64,000 nucleotides of DNA from Paramecium tetraurelia (Eukaryota), in NCBI GenBank assembly GCA_000165425.1, contig CT868097.1, forward strand, positions 502,867 to 566,866, given 5' to 3'. Below the pieces are notes generated by a model, which was given only the letters and a program-made list of their open reading frames with translations, searched no databases and was not told the DNA's origin. Each line of letters starts with the position of its first letter. Positions within the stretch are counted from its first letter, which is position 1. The translations under genes were made by a program, and so were the position numbers. Of this stretch, positions 38,069 through 62,545 are shown piece by piece.

Positions 38069-41000
38069 TCAATTATTCTTTTTAAATTCAACTTTCATCA
38101 ATTTTCCCATATCAATTATTTACTCTTAAACAAAAACAATCTATATATATAAAAACAAAATGGTTACTTTCTCTTCTATTTTTTAAATAAGTTCCTTCTC
38201 TCGAATTCCTTTATTGCCGTCTAAATCTACCAATTCTCTAGCTTAATTAAATGGAACCCAACAAAGGTCTTCCTCTTTCAATTTCTAATCAACATAACTC
38301 TCGATTCCTGAATATTCTGTCTTCTCTTTCCATTTCAAATAAGCGAAGAAGTAAACATAATTCCACATGTAATGATTTATTTTTATGTGTTCTCTAAATC
38401 CCCCATTGCTTTTTGATTGTAATCGATCAAAATCAGCTCTAATAATACATACAATATTTATACTTTAGATTTCCACATATGAAGCAATTGTCAACCATAT
38501 CTTTCAATTTATTCTCTTCCTCCTCTCTCAAACTTCCGAATGTGTCAATAATAATACCAGCCACAATATTAAGCATTATAACACCCAAAGTAATATTGCT
38601 AACTTCATCAAAGAAGAATCTGTCAACGCCTAATTCTCTGGCAACATTGTTCTTTCCAAGTTCTTATTAGACATAATCTCCTATTGAACCTCTAAAGGTC
38701 CATTCAACGTTCATCATAAAACAGTATAGTAGAGTATCGCAATATCCTGCAAAATCATTTGATAATCTCCAATAAGCAAAAATAGTAAACACATAAACCA
38801 ACAAAAACAGTAAGAAGAATGTTAAAATTAATTAAGTTCTGGGACGATAAACTGATAAGATGATATTTTTCAGTGTTGGATATCTAAATAGAATTTCAGT
38901 TAAATGAAATATGAAAAACAAGGGATGATAAAAAGTTCCTAAAATTGCAAATAAACCGTATGCTATGTAATACATCACCTCTACTTCTTATAAAAAGCTT
39001 AAAATGGTTTGAATAAATTTGTAAAACATGTCTATTAAAATAAACAGAGGATTTGGATCTTGATCATCGAATAACCCTTTTTATAACCAAGCTCTCTTCA
39101 GAATTAAAGGCGCATTCTTCAGTAAGTAAAATGATACAACAAATAAGGATAAGCAAGTCATAACAATACCAATAATATAAATAATAGTCTTCGTAATCAT
39201 GGGATTAAAGCTTTCATATTAACTAAAAAAGATGTAATCTTGAACTCTGTCACCTACTGTTCCATCAAAGCTGAAAAGTATAAATAAGTTTAAAAATAAA
39301 GTCAGGAAAAATGCCAGTTCTCTCCACAGTTTAACATAATCAGTCAACAAAGCTAAGTATTTTTATCTATCAAATAGTCTCTTCAAATATTCTTCATGTT
39401 TGCAAACTTCAATCAAAGTAGGTGCTACGTTCATTAACCCTTAAACCTTTGATTAGGTAGTACTTCTATCCACCTGATCATGAAATAGGATTTTCTATTC
39501 TTTAGGTAGATATTTGGTAGATGGTAATTTAATAAAATAAACTACTTCTAGATTCTCATCATGCATAACATCGATATGGGCACTATTCTCTTGATAAAAG
39601 TTGATGGCCATTTGCAAATCTTGTCTATATTGCTCTTCTTTGATTCTTTATTTCTCCTCCTCTGACATATCTGGTTAAACTTAATTATTTTTAAATTAAT
39701 CAGTAGCCAAATTCTTCATTGAATTCAAAGTTCCAAATAAATTGCTGATTAAGGCAATTGTAAATTAAATTAACATATAAATAAACGAATCTTTGAATAT
39801 TTGCCAAACTTCATTGCTAGTTTATGTCTTTAATATTTTCTTTTTGTACGTCCTTGTAATTTTAATTATTGGACTTACAATGTAGGGATCGCATTCCATA
39901 TAATAACTCATTAAGAAGAATAGAAGAAATCCATTTTGTAAGATGGTTTCAAAGTAAGGCTACTATTAAGAGATTTGTTTTATTCTATCAAATTTGCTTT
40001 CTTTCATTTTCCTAAGTTTATATGGATCAACTGAAAGATGCTCTAGAGATTCGATTTCGTATTTATCTCCGTATATTTTGACATATTTATTATATTCGTT
40101 GACACAATGCTTTTCTAATAAATTTATTGGTAGATTTCTCATGATTCTTTTTAAGATAGGATTATTTTGGCTTATTTCGCTTCCTTCCAATAAACTCATG
40201 ATCAAATTCAAGATTTTGTTCATTAATCTACAAATCTACCATCTTTATAATGGTTAATCCAAAAGAGATTTTCGTTTACCAATTTATTCAATCTCCGCTG
40301 GAGGTGATAGTATATACTATTGAGAAAACAAATCAGCAGCTATATCCAAAAATTTCGATTCGGAAATTGCTTTTTAATTGTCTGAACAAGGCCCTTAAAC
40401 CAGTTCATTTAAAGTATCTAAACATTTCAACATATTGTCATAGTTTTTTTAAATACGACCATCATAATAATAAGTCTTAAATAGATCAGTTATTGCATTA
40501 GTTAAATCATAATTATTTTTGGAGTTAGTCTGTTCTCTAAAGTAATTTTATAGTTTTCTATAATGTCCTTCAACAGCATTTTGCAAGAATGTTAAGACTT
40601 CCAAAACTAAACTTAAATCTTCTTCAAATTCGTGATAATCTATCTAAAGTAATCCTGCAGATTCATCTTCAGATCCTCCCTTAGATTTAGATAGGATTTC
40701 TAAATTTTCAATTTGCTTTCGAATTATAAAATAGATTTTCTAGAAGATATTTTCAGATTGACTGAAATTTATCATAAAGCTGTATATAGTTCCTTAGACT
40801 TGATCATTTCCTCCATCTAACAAAGTGTTAATAAATTAAATAAAAGACTAGAGATATGATAAATATTAATACCATCATTAATTTCTTGTCTTGGTTATTT
40901 TCACTCAAGACTAGCAACACCATTTATGTTGCTCCTAATTTATCAAATAGATTTTGCATCTCCACTTTTCTTGCTGGATCAGTGTCAATTATTTTTTTTA

Positions 41001-57631: not shown

Positions 57632-58225
57632 ATGTTCTAAGCAGAAAAAGGAGCTAATGCAATTCCAGGATATACAGGGTATGAGTGTGATTTAGTGTAG
57701 ATTTGCCCCAACATAGAATTTTGATGCAGATTTATTGTAAATTTAAGGCAATAGGAATCATATTCCAAGTAATAATCATTTTGTAACCATATTTAGACTA
57801 TGCTGGTTTTGTGCCAGGGATAAAGGCTGAAAATCTGTTTGGAAAAACCTTCGGGAAAATCACTCTTTTATCTGGTACGAGATAAAATCATTAGGGGTAA
57901 TTAATTGATAGATGATTGAATCTAGATCGAATTTGCCAGCAGATCTCAGATACAGAAGTGAAGTCAAGGATGCTTATTGCGATCAAAATCATTAAAGAAA
58001 TAAAGATAAATTGCTATATGGAAAACTTGATTCTGAAACTTCCGTAATTTATATTGAATCTATTGTAGAAAGCTCTGGCTTATAGCTTATCAAACTTAAC
58101 AAGCACTCAGGTACCCAAAACAACGAAATCCAGAGGTATTGTTAAGTTAGTATTTTGTAGTGGATGTGAAGGAGAGAGTGAGCAATGTGAGTTATCAGGA
58201 AGCACTAAAATAAGCCGGAAAATGA
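57632..58225 (+). CDS. FAM166/PYG-repeat ciliary microtubule inner protein-like
   Basis: MFQAEKGANAIPGYTGFAP...NRNHIPNYAGFVPGIKAENLFGKTFGKIT after removing tiny introns. The 'IPGYxGxxP...FGKTxG' signature is typical of FAM166-type MIPs. Confidence 0.78.
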
Positions 58226-58320
58226 TTATATTAATTATGAGGATTTATTAATTATCCCACAATTATTTGTTTTCAAATCAAATACATTATAATTATGAAG
58301 TCATTAATAAAAATAATTTA

Positions 58321-60021
58321 ATGAGTGAAAACTATAATTTTTCTGATTTCGTCAAATTTAGGAAGGGTAGTACCTTTGGCATAGGAAAGATAGAGAATTT
58401 CAGTCGCGAAGAGGATTGGTTCGAATATTTCGAATACATCTTAAGCGAAGAATTACCAACAGGTTGGTTTATATATTGTATATTTTATTGTATTTAAATA
58501 TTACACAACACACATTTTCCAATAATCCTTATTATTGTGTTTTTCTTTTTTATTAATTTTTATTAGGTAAACAACCACATCATGGATTGTATGAAGTGTT
58601 TAAGACAGATTAATTGAAGAAAGGGAAAATGACTGATATTATTGAAAAAGTCCAATTAAGTAAGCTCCCCGAATATGTCCAGATGACGGAAAAGAAAGGT
58701 TATGTGATGAGACAATAGTTCATATCCAAGGATCTGATGCCTCTATTAAAATAGTGTTTTTGTGGCCAATATGTGAATCCAGATTAGGTTCTTGTGCTTT
58801 GTACTTCATGTGAAAAGCCTTTTCATGCTGAATGTCTAATTAAATAGTTTGAACAAGGAAATGCTAATTGTGATTCTTGCAGAGAAATTCTCTCTAACCT
58901 CCAAATTACCGATCGTATTAAAGATGCATTGTAGACCAGGTCATCTACTATTGTCATCTAAACCAATCAACAAAAGACACATGAACAAAGGGCTATTTAA
59001 ATTGAAGAGGAAGAAGAAGAATAATTAGATAGAAATGAAAAGAGAATAGATTTAGATAAGATTGTCAAAAAAATCAAGACTAAAGATGGTCAAATACATT
59101 CTAAAGTGTAAATAGTAAAGTAAGATACTCACACAAATGGAAATTCTAGAGAAAAGAATTAAACACATGAAGCCATCCCATAAGCAAATCCTCCTGAATA
59201 GTAGAAACAATAATCATTACCATTTAAAAACATATCAGCCCAGGCTGTAGAAAAAATGAAAAGCTGGGTTGAGAGATATAGATAAATGGAATCCAATGCA
59301 TCAAATTTTGAAAAGAAGAGATAAGAAGTCAGAGAAAAATTCTTTTCAGTCATTTTTTATGGCATAGAAGAATTAAAAGATATGTATGAAAAAGATCCTA
59401 ATTCTATCACACAATTAGAAAAGGAGATTATCAGTAATTCTGACACAGCCTTGTTTTAATATATTAAGAATTTAGCATTAGACATTGAAGTTTACACTCA
59501 TATTAAGTTTAACACATAATACAAGACAAAATTAGAGCCGCTCTATGTTGAAAGATGCAAACTCATTTATTTACACATGAAAGATGATAAAAATTTAGAA
59601 TTGCGAAGAAAAGTCATCTCTAAAGAATTTTAAGCCCAAGATTTGAGTACTAGAGATGAAAGAGATCTTTACAATCCAGAAAAAAGACGATAAACCCAAG
59701 AAATAGCTATGAGAGTCATTGAACTTAATTAAAAAGATAAGGATGAAGAATAAAAAATCATCAAAGATATTGAAGAAGTATCCTTTTCTAGAAATGTAAA
59801 TATATATCATTATTAATTAGTAATCTATAAATGAAGAAATTTAAATCACTACTCAAAAGAAGGATGGTCATTCGACTAAAAATCTATTAAAAGAGAAAAT
59901 GATGGAATATTCAGTTGAAAAGTCTATCATGAGATTTAAAAAAAGAATTGCTGATGAACTTAATGACAAGGAACGTTTACAAATATTAGCCAGCTTAGAA
60001 TAGTATCAACTTCATTAATGA
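58321..60021 (+). CDS. BAH-like + PHD finger + TFIIS central (TFIIS_M) domain protein
   Basis: BAH-like GIGKIENF...EELPTGKQPHHGLYEVFKTD...IIEKVQL...Y..MRQ. PHD CFCGQYVNPDQVLVLCTSCEKPFHAEC...CDSC. TFIIS_M-like VREKF...LALDIE...Y.ERCKLIYLHMKDDKNLELRRKVISKEFQAQDL..RDERDLYNPE. Confidence 0.82.
58463..58566 (+). other. Atypically long (104-nt) GT..AG intron
   Basis: Removing GTTGGTTT...TTTTATTAG joins CCA ACA G|GT AAA CAA CCA CAT CAT GGA and restores the conserved BAH motif PTGKQPHHG. The segment has no internal AG. Confidence 0.8.
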
Positions 60022-60118
60022 ATATTCAAATATTATTGTTTTATATAAATCATAATTTAAAATATTGAAATAGTTTTTGTTTTCCAGAAAAAAATAGATA
60101 TAAAATGATAAAATTAAA

Positions 60119-62182
60119 TCAATTATCTTTATAGTATTCTAACCATTTAAATTATGTTTTCATAGATGTTTCAAACGCAATTCTTATTAAACTTTCTATT
60201 GCTTTCTCCTTGGCAGTCCCCTCACATTATTACAGGTTTTTTATAGATCTACGGCTTTTTATAAAGTTTACAACCCATTTTTTGAAATATTTAATCTTTC
60301 TTTTCTTTTAAATTATATCATATTTAAGTTTGACTATCTAAAAATCTTATTTTAACTTCTAATTTGAGAGTGATTACCACAATTCATGCAAATTGTCATT
60401 TTACAATAGATATTTCCATGCTTAAAATGCTTTCTTTTGAACATTTTTATTGTAAACTTCTATTGCCATTTCTTCTATTTATTGTCTTTGTTATTTTAAA
60501 GTGATTATCTTCAATTAATCTTACAATTTCTATTATTTACTAGTTAATTAATTATATCTGAATCCCTCAAGACCTTTCCTTTTTAATAAAAATTGGTAAA
60601 AGGGGTGGTATTCTTTATCGTTTTTCCAAAATTGAAACCCCTTCTGTATTCTTCTTAGTTACATAATTTAAATAAATTCTTTTTGTCTATGTCTTTGGAG
60701 GAATGCTATTTTCCATTTGATAAATACTTTTTACATCAAATTTGGACATAATTTTAAATCCTCTTTTAGTTCAAAAATTATGAGCTTAATTTTCTTAGCT
60801 TAAACTTGTCTTTCATCTACAGTATATATATCATTTAAACAATTAGGCCCTTCATACATATTTCTTGGTTTTTCATCAGTTAAAAATTAGGATAATACTT
60901 GATTATCATCATTATCATCATCCTCTTTTTGATTTTCAACTCTTTATGCTTTTTCTTTTTATTCCTTCTCTAATTGTCTCTTTCTTTGCTCTTATTAAGT
61001 TAGGTAGTAAGTAATTTATTACCATGCTTGAAGTGATTATCTTAAGAGAATCTTTCTGATTGACTTTGCTGCTTATCTTTATCGAGCCAAACATTAATGA
61101 AATATTCTCCAATTTTAAAATATTGTATTTAAAGTTTTCACTCTCATGTGATCACAGACTAATTCGTAGAATTCATTTTTAGATTTGTTTCTTTAAGAGT
61201 ATTAATATAGCTTTTAAAAGCATTTTTTTTAATTTATCATTTGTCTTATCTGTGTTGTATCATTTAATATCTTGTTAATTGCACTTTTGTATTTAATTCT
61301 CAAAAACAAATATCTTAAAAACATCTTTTTAGTTATTCGTTTTTATTCTAATAGTAACATATTCTTCTTCCTTTCGTAAAGGGCTTCACTTAATAACTCT
61401 TTTTTTATCTCATTTGCCCTTATGCAAAGTTCTCTAATAGGATAGATATAATTCAAGCATAATATTATACTGTAAATTTTCAGTTACTAAAAGAGTTAAA
61501 TGCTAAGAAGAGTGAATTCTTTAATATTATTGTTCTTCTTTTATTTTATCGACTGATTGAAATAATTAATATTCTTCATATTCTCAATTAAGGATAAAAT
61601 GTTGATATTTTATGTACTCAAATTGGCTAACTCTTCTTCAGGCCAAAATATGCATAGATTTAAGTTCAATTTCAATCCTTACTCTAATTTTTTTTCAATT
61701 TTGACAGGAATCCAAGAAGGTGGGTTTTCCAATTCAAATTCTAATTTTTTTATTATTAATTTAGGTTGTACTTGTCTAACTATACCTGTTCTTTTTTAAA
61801 AGACCGATTCATTTGGTATTGTTCGAACTTTTTCTAAGTCTTACTAATATTCATCAGCAAATTTAACTTAATGTTATTATTCATCCATTTCATCTGGTTC
61901 ATTTAACATTTATAACTTTTGAATTTCTGGTGTTGAACACGTAAATTATTTAGTAGACACATCTTCAACTTTGGGTTTTGCTTTTTTCACAGTTGTAAGC
62001 TTTTAACAAAAAAAATCAATTTCTTTTAGTAGCATGGACTATTATGAAAACTCCTCTTATTAAATTAGAGGAGCATGAAGAGGTTTTGGTTTCTATAGTA
62101 CCATCATTGTCTCTTCCATCTACTTTAAAATATCTCTTTAAGGTTAAAAATTTGGAGTCACATCGCTTTCCAATTTAATCAT
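60119..62182 (-). CDS. Hypothetical coiled-coil protein with IQ/Sfi1-like repeats
   Basis: MIKLESDVTPNFQPQRDILKQMEETMMV... is a long Gln/Lys-rich frame in table 6. QAAKSIRKILLRQSLQAW and KVFIKWK segments resemble calmodulin/centrin-binding repeats. Ends ...WLEYYKDN*. Confidence 0.65.
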
Positions 62183-62545
62183 GAATACTTATTAACTGAA
62201 AAATAATTAATTCAAATTAATTATTTATTAAATGAAAAACAAATAATAAATCCATTTAAGAAGACAATCATAGATGCTCATCTATAATATACAAAACAAT
62301 TCGATATTTATTATATTATAAAGTATCCTATAAAGTCTCTGATCTATTTCAGGTTTAATTCTACATTATATACATAAAATGAACTCAGAAGATTGTTATA
62401 GGATATTATTTTTTTAATGAATTATTAATTATATCTAATGAACTTTGAGCCATTCATGTTGCAAATTGGAAAATTAGGGAGATAGTATTTAATTCTAAAT
62501 AATTATAACTCAGAATTATGGATTATTTATATATAAGTATTAGTG

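Follow-up and report, generated by a model that had tools for sequence, protein, structure and literature searches.

Gene structure at the locus

In the stretch of Paramecium tetraurelia DNA analysed here (contig CT868097.1, 64,000 nucleotides (nt), referred to as the window), a plus-strand gene for a predicted chromatin protein is interrupted by a first intron of 104 nt, about four times the length that is usual in this organism. The G+C content of the window is about 25-30%, and its long frames are open under genetic code 6 only. The spliced coding sequence (CDS) of the gene comprises 1572 nt, is open throughout and encodes 523 amino acids. The features of the gene are the following, all on the plus strand.

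58321-60021, plus strand: gene, with the ATG at 58321 and the TGA stop at 60019-60021
58321-58462, plus strand: exon 1, 47 codons plus 1 nt, first half of a BAH-like domain, based on translation
58463-58566, plus strand: intron 1, 104 nt, phase 1, donor CAG/GTTGGT and acceptor TTATTAG/GT, based on sequence and RNA
58567-59795, plus strand: exon 2, second half of BAH, PHD finger and TFIIS central domain, based on translation and Pfam
59796-59820, plus strand: intron 2, 25 nt, ordinary, GTAAAT..AATTAG
59821-60021, plus strand: exon 3 with the TGA stop, based on translation
58618-58620, plus strand: first in-frame TGA upon retention of intron 1, giving a 98-residue read-through open reading frame (P0015)

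A preliminary description of this stretch, made from the letters alone, had noted the length of 104 nt, the GTTGGT donor and the lack of an internal AG, all of which are exact on the sequence; the only AG within the intron is the terminal one at 58565. It had also put the intron at about four times the normal size, which agrees with the 25 nt of intron 2 and with the median of 25 nt tabulated for Paramecium, where introns of more than 40 nt number 38 in annotation v1 and 720 of 94,711 in v2 (PMC5485702, Table 1). According to a further report, more than 95% of Paramecium introns measure 20-34 nt (PMC11334263). Deletion of the 104 nt (3n+2) links the frame of exon 1, starting with the ATG at 58321, to the frame of exon 2, while the shorter GT..AG intervals ending at 58566 (30 and 28 nt) are both in the wrong phase, so that none of them restores the frame.

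With its GT-AG ends (GTTGGT...TTATTAG) the intron differs from introns of the U12 type, which carry [AG]TATCCTT at the 5' end and the branch site TCCTTRAY close to the 3' end: it begins with GTTGGTTT, and TCCTTATT lies about 35 nt from its 3' end. By eye, TTAAT about 11 nt upstream of the terminal AG is a candidate branch site. The composition is skewed (17% G+C, 55% T), with 29 T within the final 45 nt, i.e. a U-rich 3' third. Against the textbook 5' end of U1, the donor CAG/GUUGGU pairs at 8 of 9 positions with one wobble and the donor of intron 2 (AAU/GUAAAU) at 5 of 9, although the U1 of Paramecium may differ. The interior contains a CA-rich block (ACACAACACACA) and an ACA-rich block at 58503-58514.

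The donor motif GTTGGTTTATAT, allowing at most one mismatch, was found twice in the window against 0.72 matches expected, a count that 19 of 100 shuffles reached. The sole other near-match is GTTGGTTTATGT on the minus strand at 38791-38802, which has one mismatch and is within chance expectation. A repeated element was considered and rejected, since the 27-nt core is unique in the window.

Intron 1 is excised as a single unit from poly(A)+ RNA

Four public sequencing runs (X12, X18, X20 and X23) were aligned to 58200-60060. X18, classified as RNA by the guess of the tool, contains a fraction of 0.84 of the words sampled, which is what a transcript lacking introns and flanking sequence should give. 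Its contig of 1165 nt (record 8, depth 369) extends from 58305 to 58460 and continues directly with 58565 to 59573, which means that exactly 104 nt are absent. Because AG occurs at both 58461-58462 and 58565-58566, the joint 58460/58565 is equivalent to 58462/58567. The depth of X18 across intron 1 is zero, as the values of the two bins concerned equal 369 x 9/63 and 369 x 13/63.

The raw reads of run X23, at most 58 nt long, come from a stranded oligo-dT library; about 33/100 of the run was read, and 1409 reads aligned. As expected of plus-strand RNA in the usual stranded library, all first mates were located on the minus strand. Nineteen reads match the window up to 58464 and then continue with AAACAACCACATCAT, i.e. 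with exon 2 after its GT (agreement 1); the match reaches 58464 because exon 2 and intron 1 both begin with GT. Depth in 63-nt bins amounts to 34.7 and 60.6 for exon 1, 12.5 and 10.6 for the bins spanning the intron and 78.4 and 98.4 for exon 2, and by arithmetic the 11-13 exonic nt within each intron-spanning bin account for most or all of the depth seen there. We estimate that no more than a few percent of the poly(A)+ RNA retains intron 1. Overall, RNA read depth is 35-61 in exon 1 and 20-114 in exon 2, and intron 2 is backed by four X23 reads, whose loose end at 59821 consists of the last letters of exon 2 (CTAGAAAT).

Transcripts starting downstream of 58566, which the preliminary description had proposed to look for as a sign against the intron, were not seen: the RNA contigs begin at 58288 (X20) and 58305 (X18), and X23 has a depth of 0.57 in 58263-58325. 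From these results we conclude that in most poly(A)+ transcripts intron 1 has been excised as a whole, and that these transcripts begin upstream of the ATG. The preliminary description was thus right that the interval does not represent two tiny introns flanking a micro-exon; it is a single real intron of 104 nt.

The splice junction lies within the BAH-like part of a predicted BAH-PHD-TFIIS_M protein

In exon 2, Pfam identified TFIIS_M (PF07500; E 2.2e-11, 44.6 bits against a gathering threshold of 29.2) and, below threshold, a PHD finger (E 3.1e-4). The Pfam scan of the 47-residue exon 1 peptide gave no match and the split halves of the window protein gave no BAH; in one of four full-length older paralogues, BAH (PF01426) was matched weakly (E 0.023, 15 bits against a cut-off of 30.8). 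The assignment was carried by a profile of five full-length paralogues, which matches the plant BAH-PHD readers SHL (5znp, E 5.3e-6) and EBS (5z8n, E 6.3e-5) as well as the TFIIS-like domain of yeast Bye1 (PDB 4bxx, E 0.0037). The SHL and EBS alignments start just before the intron site, pass through G48 with the pattern ..G-(K/R)(Q/R)..HG..E(V/L)F.. and run on to the PHD finger. Since they span the intron site, the junction is placed within the BAH-like part of a putative chromatin protein, as had been proposed beforehand. The older-paralogue proteins P0007, P0019, P0020 and P0008 read ..LP[KT]G-KQ[PQ]HHG.. across the junction without interruption, and the spliced junction indeed restores this conserved BAH motif. 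An AlphaFold model of the paralogue P0020, based on a 5-row alignment, had a mean predicted local distance difference test (pLDDT) value of 50.4, with residues 1-111 below 50, and is too poor for the BAH question.

EBS and SHL resemble the host protein in that the paralogue profile aligns to the second half of BAH and to PHD. They lack TFIIS_M, whereas the host protein joins BAH, PHD and TFIIS_M in one chain, and its histone binding is only predicted. Bye1, which has the order PHD-TLD-SPOC, shares the TFIIS-like domain (TLD) matched by the profile but differs from the combination found here. A homologue of P. bursaria, P0010, reads IILKNVVYPTM.. after ..ELPTG, as compared to KQPHHGLY..; the difference may reflect true divergence or an intron at this site that was modelled wrongly.

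Public gene models of the family are disrupted at intron 1

A search with exon 2 found the gene family in Paramecium only. It consists of two groups that are about 90% identical to each other, i.e. the pair from a recent duplication, and a third, older group that is about 65-68% identical to the window protein. Over its C-terminal 461 residues the window protein does not differ from P. tetraurelia GSPATT00008249001 (P0012), and the P. octaurelia orthologue differs at 5 of 455 residues; on these grounds the window was taken as macronuclear DNA of P. tetraurelia type. The exon 1 peptide is 100% identical to that in the P. primaurelia stub protein P0014.

None of the ten main models of the two recent groups (P0012, P0013, P0003, P0011, P0005, P0006, P0018, P0016, P0017 and P0004) contains the true junction. 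Nine of them begin at an internal methionine, namely MTDII (58629), MTEKK (58683) or MRQQF (58707). The P. tetraurelia v1 model P0012 reads through intron 1 for about 35 residues and then skips a 20-nt interval, which returns it to frame:

58589-58608, plus strand: spurious 20-nt GT..AG "intron" of P0012, an artefact deduced from comparing P0012 (..NNHIMD/YQLKKGK..) with the window

This skip deletes part of the real BAH motif, and the read alignments reported no joint or loose end at 58589-58608. Beside many of the models lie small stub "proteins" of 76-121 amino acids, which combine exon 1 with read-through of the intron (P0014, P0015, P0021, P0027, P0023, P0029 and P0030); one of them, P0027 of P. 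sonneborni, is labelled "Transmembrane protein" in UniRef. In the older group four of five models are correct, the exception being the P. tetraurelia v1 model P0009.

As described by Arnaiz et al. 2017 (PMC5485702), the v1 annotation deliberately filtered introns of more than 45 nt, and introns were capped at 100 nt in the TrUC and TopHat2 runs. The same annotation pipeline is described as having been applied to nine species (Sellis et al. 2021, PMC8354472), and the annotated introns given in a study of P. bursaria reach 100 nt at most (PMC12862383). The public models split or truncate the gene or read through the intron because 104 nt exceeds these limits, both the 45 nt of v1 and the 100 nt of TrUC and TopHat. 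In the literature found on long or large Paramecium introns there was no validated intron above 100 nt, which is not proof of absence, and no mention of the four GSPATT gene identifiers of the family was found.

Conservation of the intron among species and gene duplicates

The mis-annotated stubs allowed us to read the conservation of intron 1 from their translations, in codon-sized steps of the read-through frame, while the out-of-frame reading of exon 2 reveals the synonymous changes of that exon. In P0015, which is also present on the contig carrying P. octaurelia P0013, 0 of 35 intron steps and 0 of 16 out-of-frame exon 2 steps differ. The corresponding numbers are 1 of 35 and 3 of 21 for P. 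primaurelia P0014, and for P. sonneborni 3 of 35 and 14 of 39 (P0021) and 3 of 35 and 13 of 39 (P0027). For the two P. sonneborni copies, which are not independent, Fisher tests of intron against out-of-frame exon 2 gave p values of 0.006 and 0.012. For comparison, identity between the real protein and its P. sonneborni counterparts is 89-91%, and none of the four stubs P0015, P0014, P0021 and P0027 has a frame-shifting length change. By this indirect route, intron 1 appears to have the same reading-frame length and near-identical sequence in P. octaurelia, P. primaurelia and both P. sonneborni copies.

The recent-paralogue stubs P0023, P0029 and P0030 are identical to intron 1 over the first nine steps; past a shift of 1 nt, 16 of 21 steps are identical to the second frame of the window (5 of 21 differ). 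Because the match continues in the second frame, the likeness is independent of any single reading frame. A unitig of 42 nt with double depth in DNA and RNA runs (58447-58488), consisting of the last 16 nt of exon 1 and intron nt 1-26, stops exactly at the inferred 1-nt deletion of the recent paralogue, as would be seen if the two copies, present in the same cells, were identical over these 42 nt. Stretches shared in this way number only three within 1.86 kb, corresponding to an estimated exon divergence between the recent copies of about 12%. In the older paralogue, the stubs P0026 and P0033 read G-WFISCIYY.. for 22 steps, implying a long intron that starts with GTTGGTTT at the same site, while more distant relatives read G-CFIY.., implying GTTGTTTT, and then diverge. 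As far as such translations allow, both the recent and the older paralogue would thus have a homologous long intron at this site, likewise starting with GTTGGTTT. Taken together, the conservation in orthologues and paralogues suggests that intron 1 is an old intron whose sequence changes more slowly than the coding DNA next to it. When metagenome contigs were scanned with the alignment of exon 1, 598 pattern stretches matched, none of which was confirmed as orthologous DNA.

Minority letters, supported by 3-11 of 42-85 reads, were observed in X23 at 58589, 58616, 58634, 59588, 59594, 59666 and 59928, and the sites 59588 and 59928 directly adjoin double-depth unitigs of 44 nt (59544-59587 and 59929-59972). 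These letters fit cross-mapped reads of the recent paralogue (GSPATT00011925001 type, about 90% identical) rather than editing or alleles.

Alternative explanations for the long intron

The alternative that survives best, which we nevertheless consider unlikely, is that the long intron is kept as the host of a stable, non-canonical small non-coding RNA processed from the excised intron. Long conserved introns in intron-poor or tiny-intron genomes host small nucleolar RNAs (snoRNAs) in many eukaryotes. Conservation here covers the full length of the intron and not its ends alone, which it has in common with snoRNA-hosting introns, and the ACA-rich block at 58503-58514 follows a weak hairpin predicted over intron nt 1-47. 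What speaks against such an RNA is that Rfam found nothing within the intron: a scan of 57800-59200 with E-values up to 10 gave four weak matches, all outside intron 1, and the scan of the whole window at gathering scores gave none. ARAGORN detected no tRNA. The preliminary description had reported neither a C box nor a D box, and the intron in fact lacks any TGA or TCA, which makes the canonical C (RUGAUGA, UGAUGA) and D (CUGA) boxes impossible on either strand. Assignment to box H/ACA fails on the missing Rfam match, the weak fold and the position of the ACA triplets, which lie mid-intron after the weak hairpin. The poly(A) libraries used cannot reveal small RNA.

The folding results argue in the same direction. 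Compared to shuffled sequences, the z value was -0.78 for intron 1, -0.31, -0.34 and -0.44 for the region of the 5' junction and -0.83 for 231 nt of the pre-mRNA, none of them significant. Three inferred natural variants, a change of A36 and C58>A in P. sonneborni and a change of A63 in the recent paralogue, break three predicted pairs with no compensating change. The inverted repeat CAATAAT-CCTT-ATTATTG pointed out in the preliminary description is present (58520-58537, arms starting at 58520 and 58531), as are its ACACA and TGTGT segments, but a perfect stem of at least 7 bp with a loop of 3-12 nt was obtained in 367 of 2000 intron shuffles (18%), and the repeat is no more than chance. Accordingly, neither of the two suggestions made from the sequence, an intron shortened by structure or a host of an unusual small RNA, was borne out. 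A further inverted repeat, ACCAAC-AG-GTTGGT on the plus strand (58455-58468), straddles the 5' splice site. It could place the site in the loop of a 5-bp hairpin, and with a fold of -3 kcal/mol and z values of -0.3 to -0.44 it may be due to chance.

It is less probable still that the interval is also coding, with the intron-retaining mRNA giving a protein of 98-121 residues (half of BAH plus a hydrophobic tail) whose reading frame is conserved. The frame stays open on read-through in P. tetraurelia, P. octaurelia, P. primaurelia and both copies from P. sonneborni; its changes are few and mostly mild (F>L, I>L, Y>N, P>Q), at a level that resembles the divergence of the real exons, and the label of P0027 would agree with a membrane protein. 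However, T-rich DNA always yields peptides rich in F, I and L, and an open frame is expected by chance where TGA is the sole stop. In the recent paralogue the shift of 1 nt moves the remainder into another frame with an early stop, and the second-frame identity persists nonetheless. Three of the five recent-paralogue differences fall on third positions of the read-through frame (21 such positions), so that these positions are unsaturated. Finally, the intron-retaining form makes up only a minor part of the poly(A)+ RNA, and its early stop, far upstream of the normal one, makes it a likely target of nonsense-mediated decay (NMD).

Equally improbable is an internal promoter or start region within intron 1, from which a BAH-less transcript translated from Met69 (58629) would arise. 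Paramecium promoters are tiny; at this locus the upstream transcript ends near 58260-58271 and that of this gene starts near 58288-58305. Several public models begin at Met69, and the X23 depth is higher in exon 2 (78-98) than in exon 1 (35-61). Yet no contig begins in intron 1 or at the start of exon 2, no cluster of starts near 58567-58630 is among the clusters listed, and the 26 additional letters that record 14 of X20 has on its 5' side, ahead of 58565, are what exon 1 sequence would give. The depth within exon 2 itself varies over such a range (20-114) that the ratio between the exons means little, and the public internal start sites are explained by the limits of the annotation.

With regard to the DNA, the preliminary description had also raised an ordinary intron of about 25 nt carrying a retained internal eliminated sequence (IES) bounded by TA, and had asked for DNA reads with a deletion between TA dinucleotides. 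X12 was classified as DNA by the guess of the tool, and the contig check was made on this run alone: its contigs (records 1-3) tile 58200-59573, intron 1 included, with no other letters and no gaps, and the listing shows neither such a deletion nor a joint. The tool itself discarded, as "most false", one joint row that fell on a skipped repeat in the alignment of the DNA and RNA runs. Of the 24 listed runs, 16 from 8 studies contain 0.97-0.99 of the sampled words of 58250-60050, their macronuclear origin being assumed. Intron 1 is thus a stable part of the somatic DNA. IES ends follow the consensus TAYAG; the intron holds 17 TA, none of which is followed by YAG, leaving no TAYAG-like ends. Like an IES of Paramecium it is AT-rich, TA-rich and tens of nt long, its many TA-TA pairs 73-84 nt apart could be taken for IES boundaries, and about 5% of IESs are stated to sit in introns (PMC8354472), but a tiny intron with a retained or formerly excised IES, or extra DNA from an assembly artefact, is scarcely credible, as the interval is present in the somatic DNA without any difference, is lost from the RNA as exactly 104 nt from GT to AG and not as a smaller unit, and is conserved across species and duplicates, unlike a recent insertion.

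Flanking features

Gene spacing on the 5' side is tight, with contigs of the upstream plus-strand transcript stopping at about 58260-58271 and an untranscribed spacer of only about 20-40 nt before this gene. On its other side, the minus strand carries an open frame of 796 codons under code 6 (60119-62509), which is rich in Q and K and has no Pfam match at E up to 0.01.

A conserved intron with a possible role in cis

Considering all of this, 58463-58566 very probably represents a genuine U2-type GT-AG intron of 104 nt, in phase 1 at Gly48, of a macronuclear BAH-PHD-TFIIS_M gene; the intron is probably old and conserved, and its interior perhaps cis-acting. The preliminary description had listed a regulated intron among its options, and this becomes more plausible because the intron sequence is conserved. 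For the interior we propose, with the balance of probability close to even but slightly against it, that the conserved sequence acts in cis on the pre-mRNA by helping a spliceosome tuned to introns of about 25 nt to pair splice sites 104 nt apart, possibly tuning the spliced fraction. Candidate signals would be the donor with its extended complementarity to textbook U1, the AG-free interior, the CA-rich block and the U-rich 3' third. Retention would shift the frame to a TGA 52 nt past the intron end, and unspliced mRNA should in this way be sent to NMD. A more far-reaching version is doubtful, namely that intron 1 is a regulatory RNA element, conserved since before the whole-genome duplications of the aurelia group, which would set the level of the BAH-PHD-TFIIS_M reader via splicing and NMD or via a non-canonical intron-derived RNA, and which would reveal, as its first example, a class of introns above 100 nt that annotation settings keep out of sight.

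Several points weigh against the reading of the interval as a conserved and cis-acting intron. None of the folds is significant (z -0.78 for the intron, -0.31 to -0.44 for the 5' junction, -0.83 for the pre-mRNA), so that no structure backs a role in cis, and the complementarity of the donor depends on the U1 5' end of the textbook. Retention is only an estimate, since the bins are 63 nt wide and 58540-58564 was skipped as a repeat, and the RNA nature of X18 was guessed by the tool. The RNA library X20 includes an unspliced piece of the 5' junction (record 13, 58435-58476, depth 9 against 16.9 for exon 1), which could be pre-mRNA, retention or DNA carry-over. With respect to conservation, the two P. 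sonneborni copies do not count as separate samples, translations hide third-position changes of the read-through frame, which leaves strict nucleotide conservation in the orthologues unproven, and coding constraint on that frame would look alike. Gene conversion between duplicates is reported to be widespread in Paramecium (PMC11334263), and it could explain identity between paralogues within a species, but not identity between species.

In comparison to known introns, intron 1 shares with the standard introns of Paramecium the GT..AG ends, the removal from mRNA and a length that is not a multiple of three; its retention leads to a premature TGA by frame shift, a logic that has been described for Paramecium introns (PMC11334263). 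It differs from these introns of 20-34 nt by a fourfold length, the U-rich 3' third and a sequence conserved across species, and its GTTGGT donor contrasts with the GTA-type donor of its 25-nt neighbour, intron 2. Autoregulated genes for ribosomal proteins or RNA helicases in yeast contain long conserved regulatory introns. Intron 1 resembles such introns of intron-poor fungi in being unusually long for a minimal-intron genome, in an interior that appears to be under purifying selection and in a premature stop upon retention. In contrast to them, a conserved RNA structure, a protein-binding site or autoregulation would be conjectural for intron 1. Intron 1 is a spliceosomal intron and as such of a known kind, but lies outside the length range that the pipelines of the field allow.

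Paramecium serves as the textbook example of introns that are minimal and seem poor in signals, and annotation and mapping settings assume that none exceeds 100 nt. Here, an intron above this ceiling is efficiently spliced and preserved together with its sequence across sibling species and gene duplicates, and because it lies above the ceiling, its class is absent from public annotations by construction. As a consequence, it corrupted every public model examined in the two groups of the recent duplication, which either lost half of the BAH domain or gained a nonsensical hydrophobic insert. The 523-residue model presented here corrects the P. tetraurelia gene, and with it a chromatin-reader gene family in at least five species, and gives a reason for remapping RNA-seq data under a higher intron ceiling. 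Moreover, two questions become tractable with this gene: how an intron of classical appearance is handled by a spliceosome adapted to introns of 25 nt, and whether conserved intron sequence in a ciliate carries regulation.

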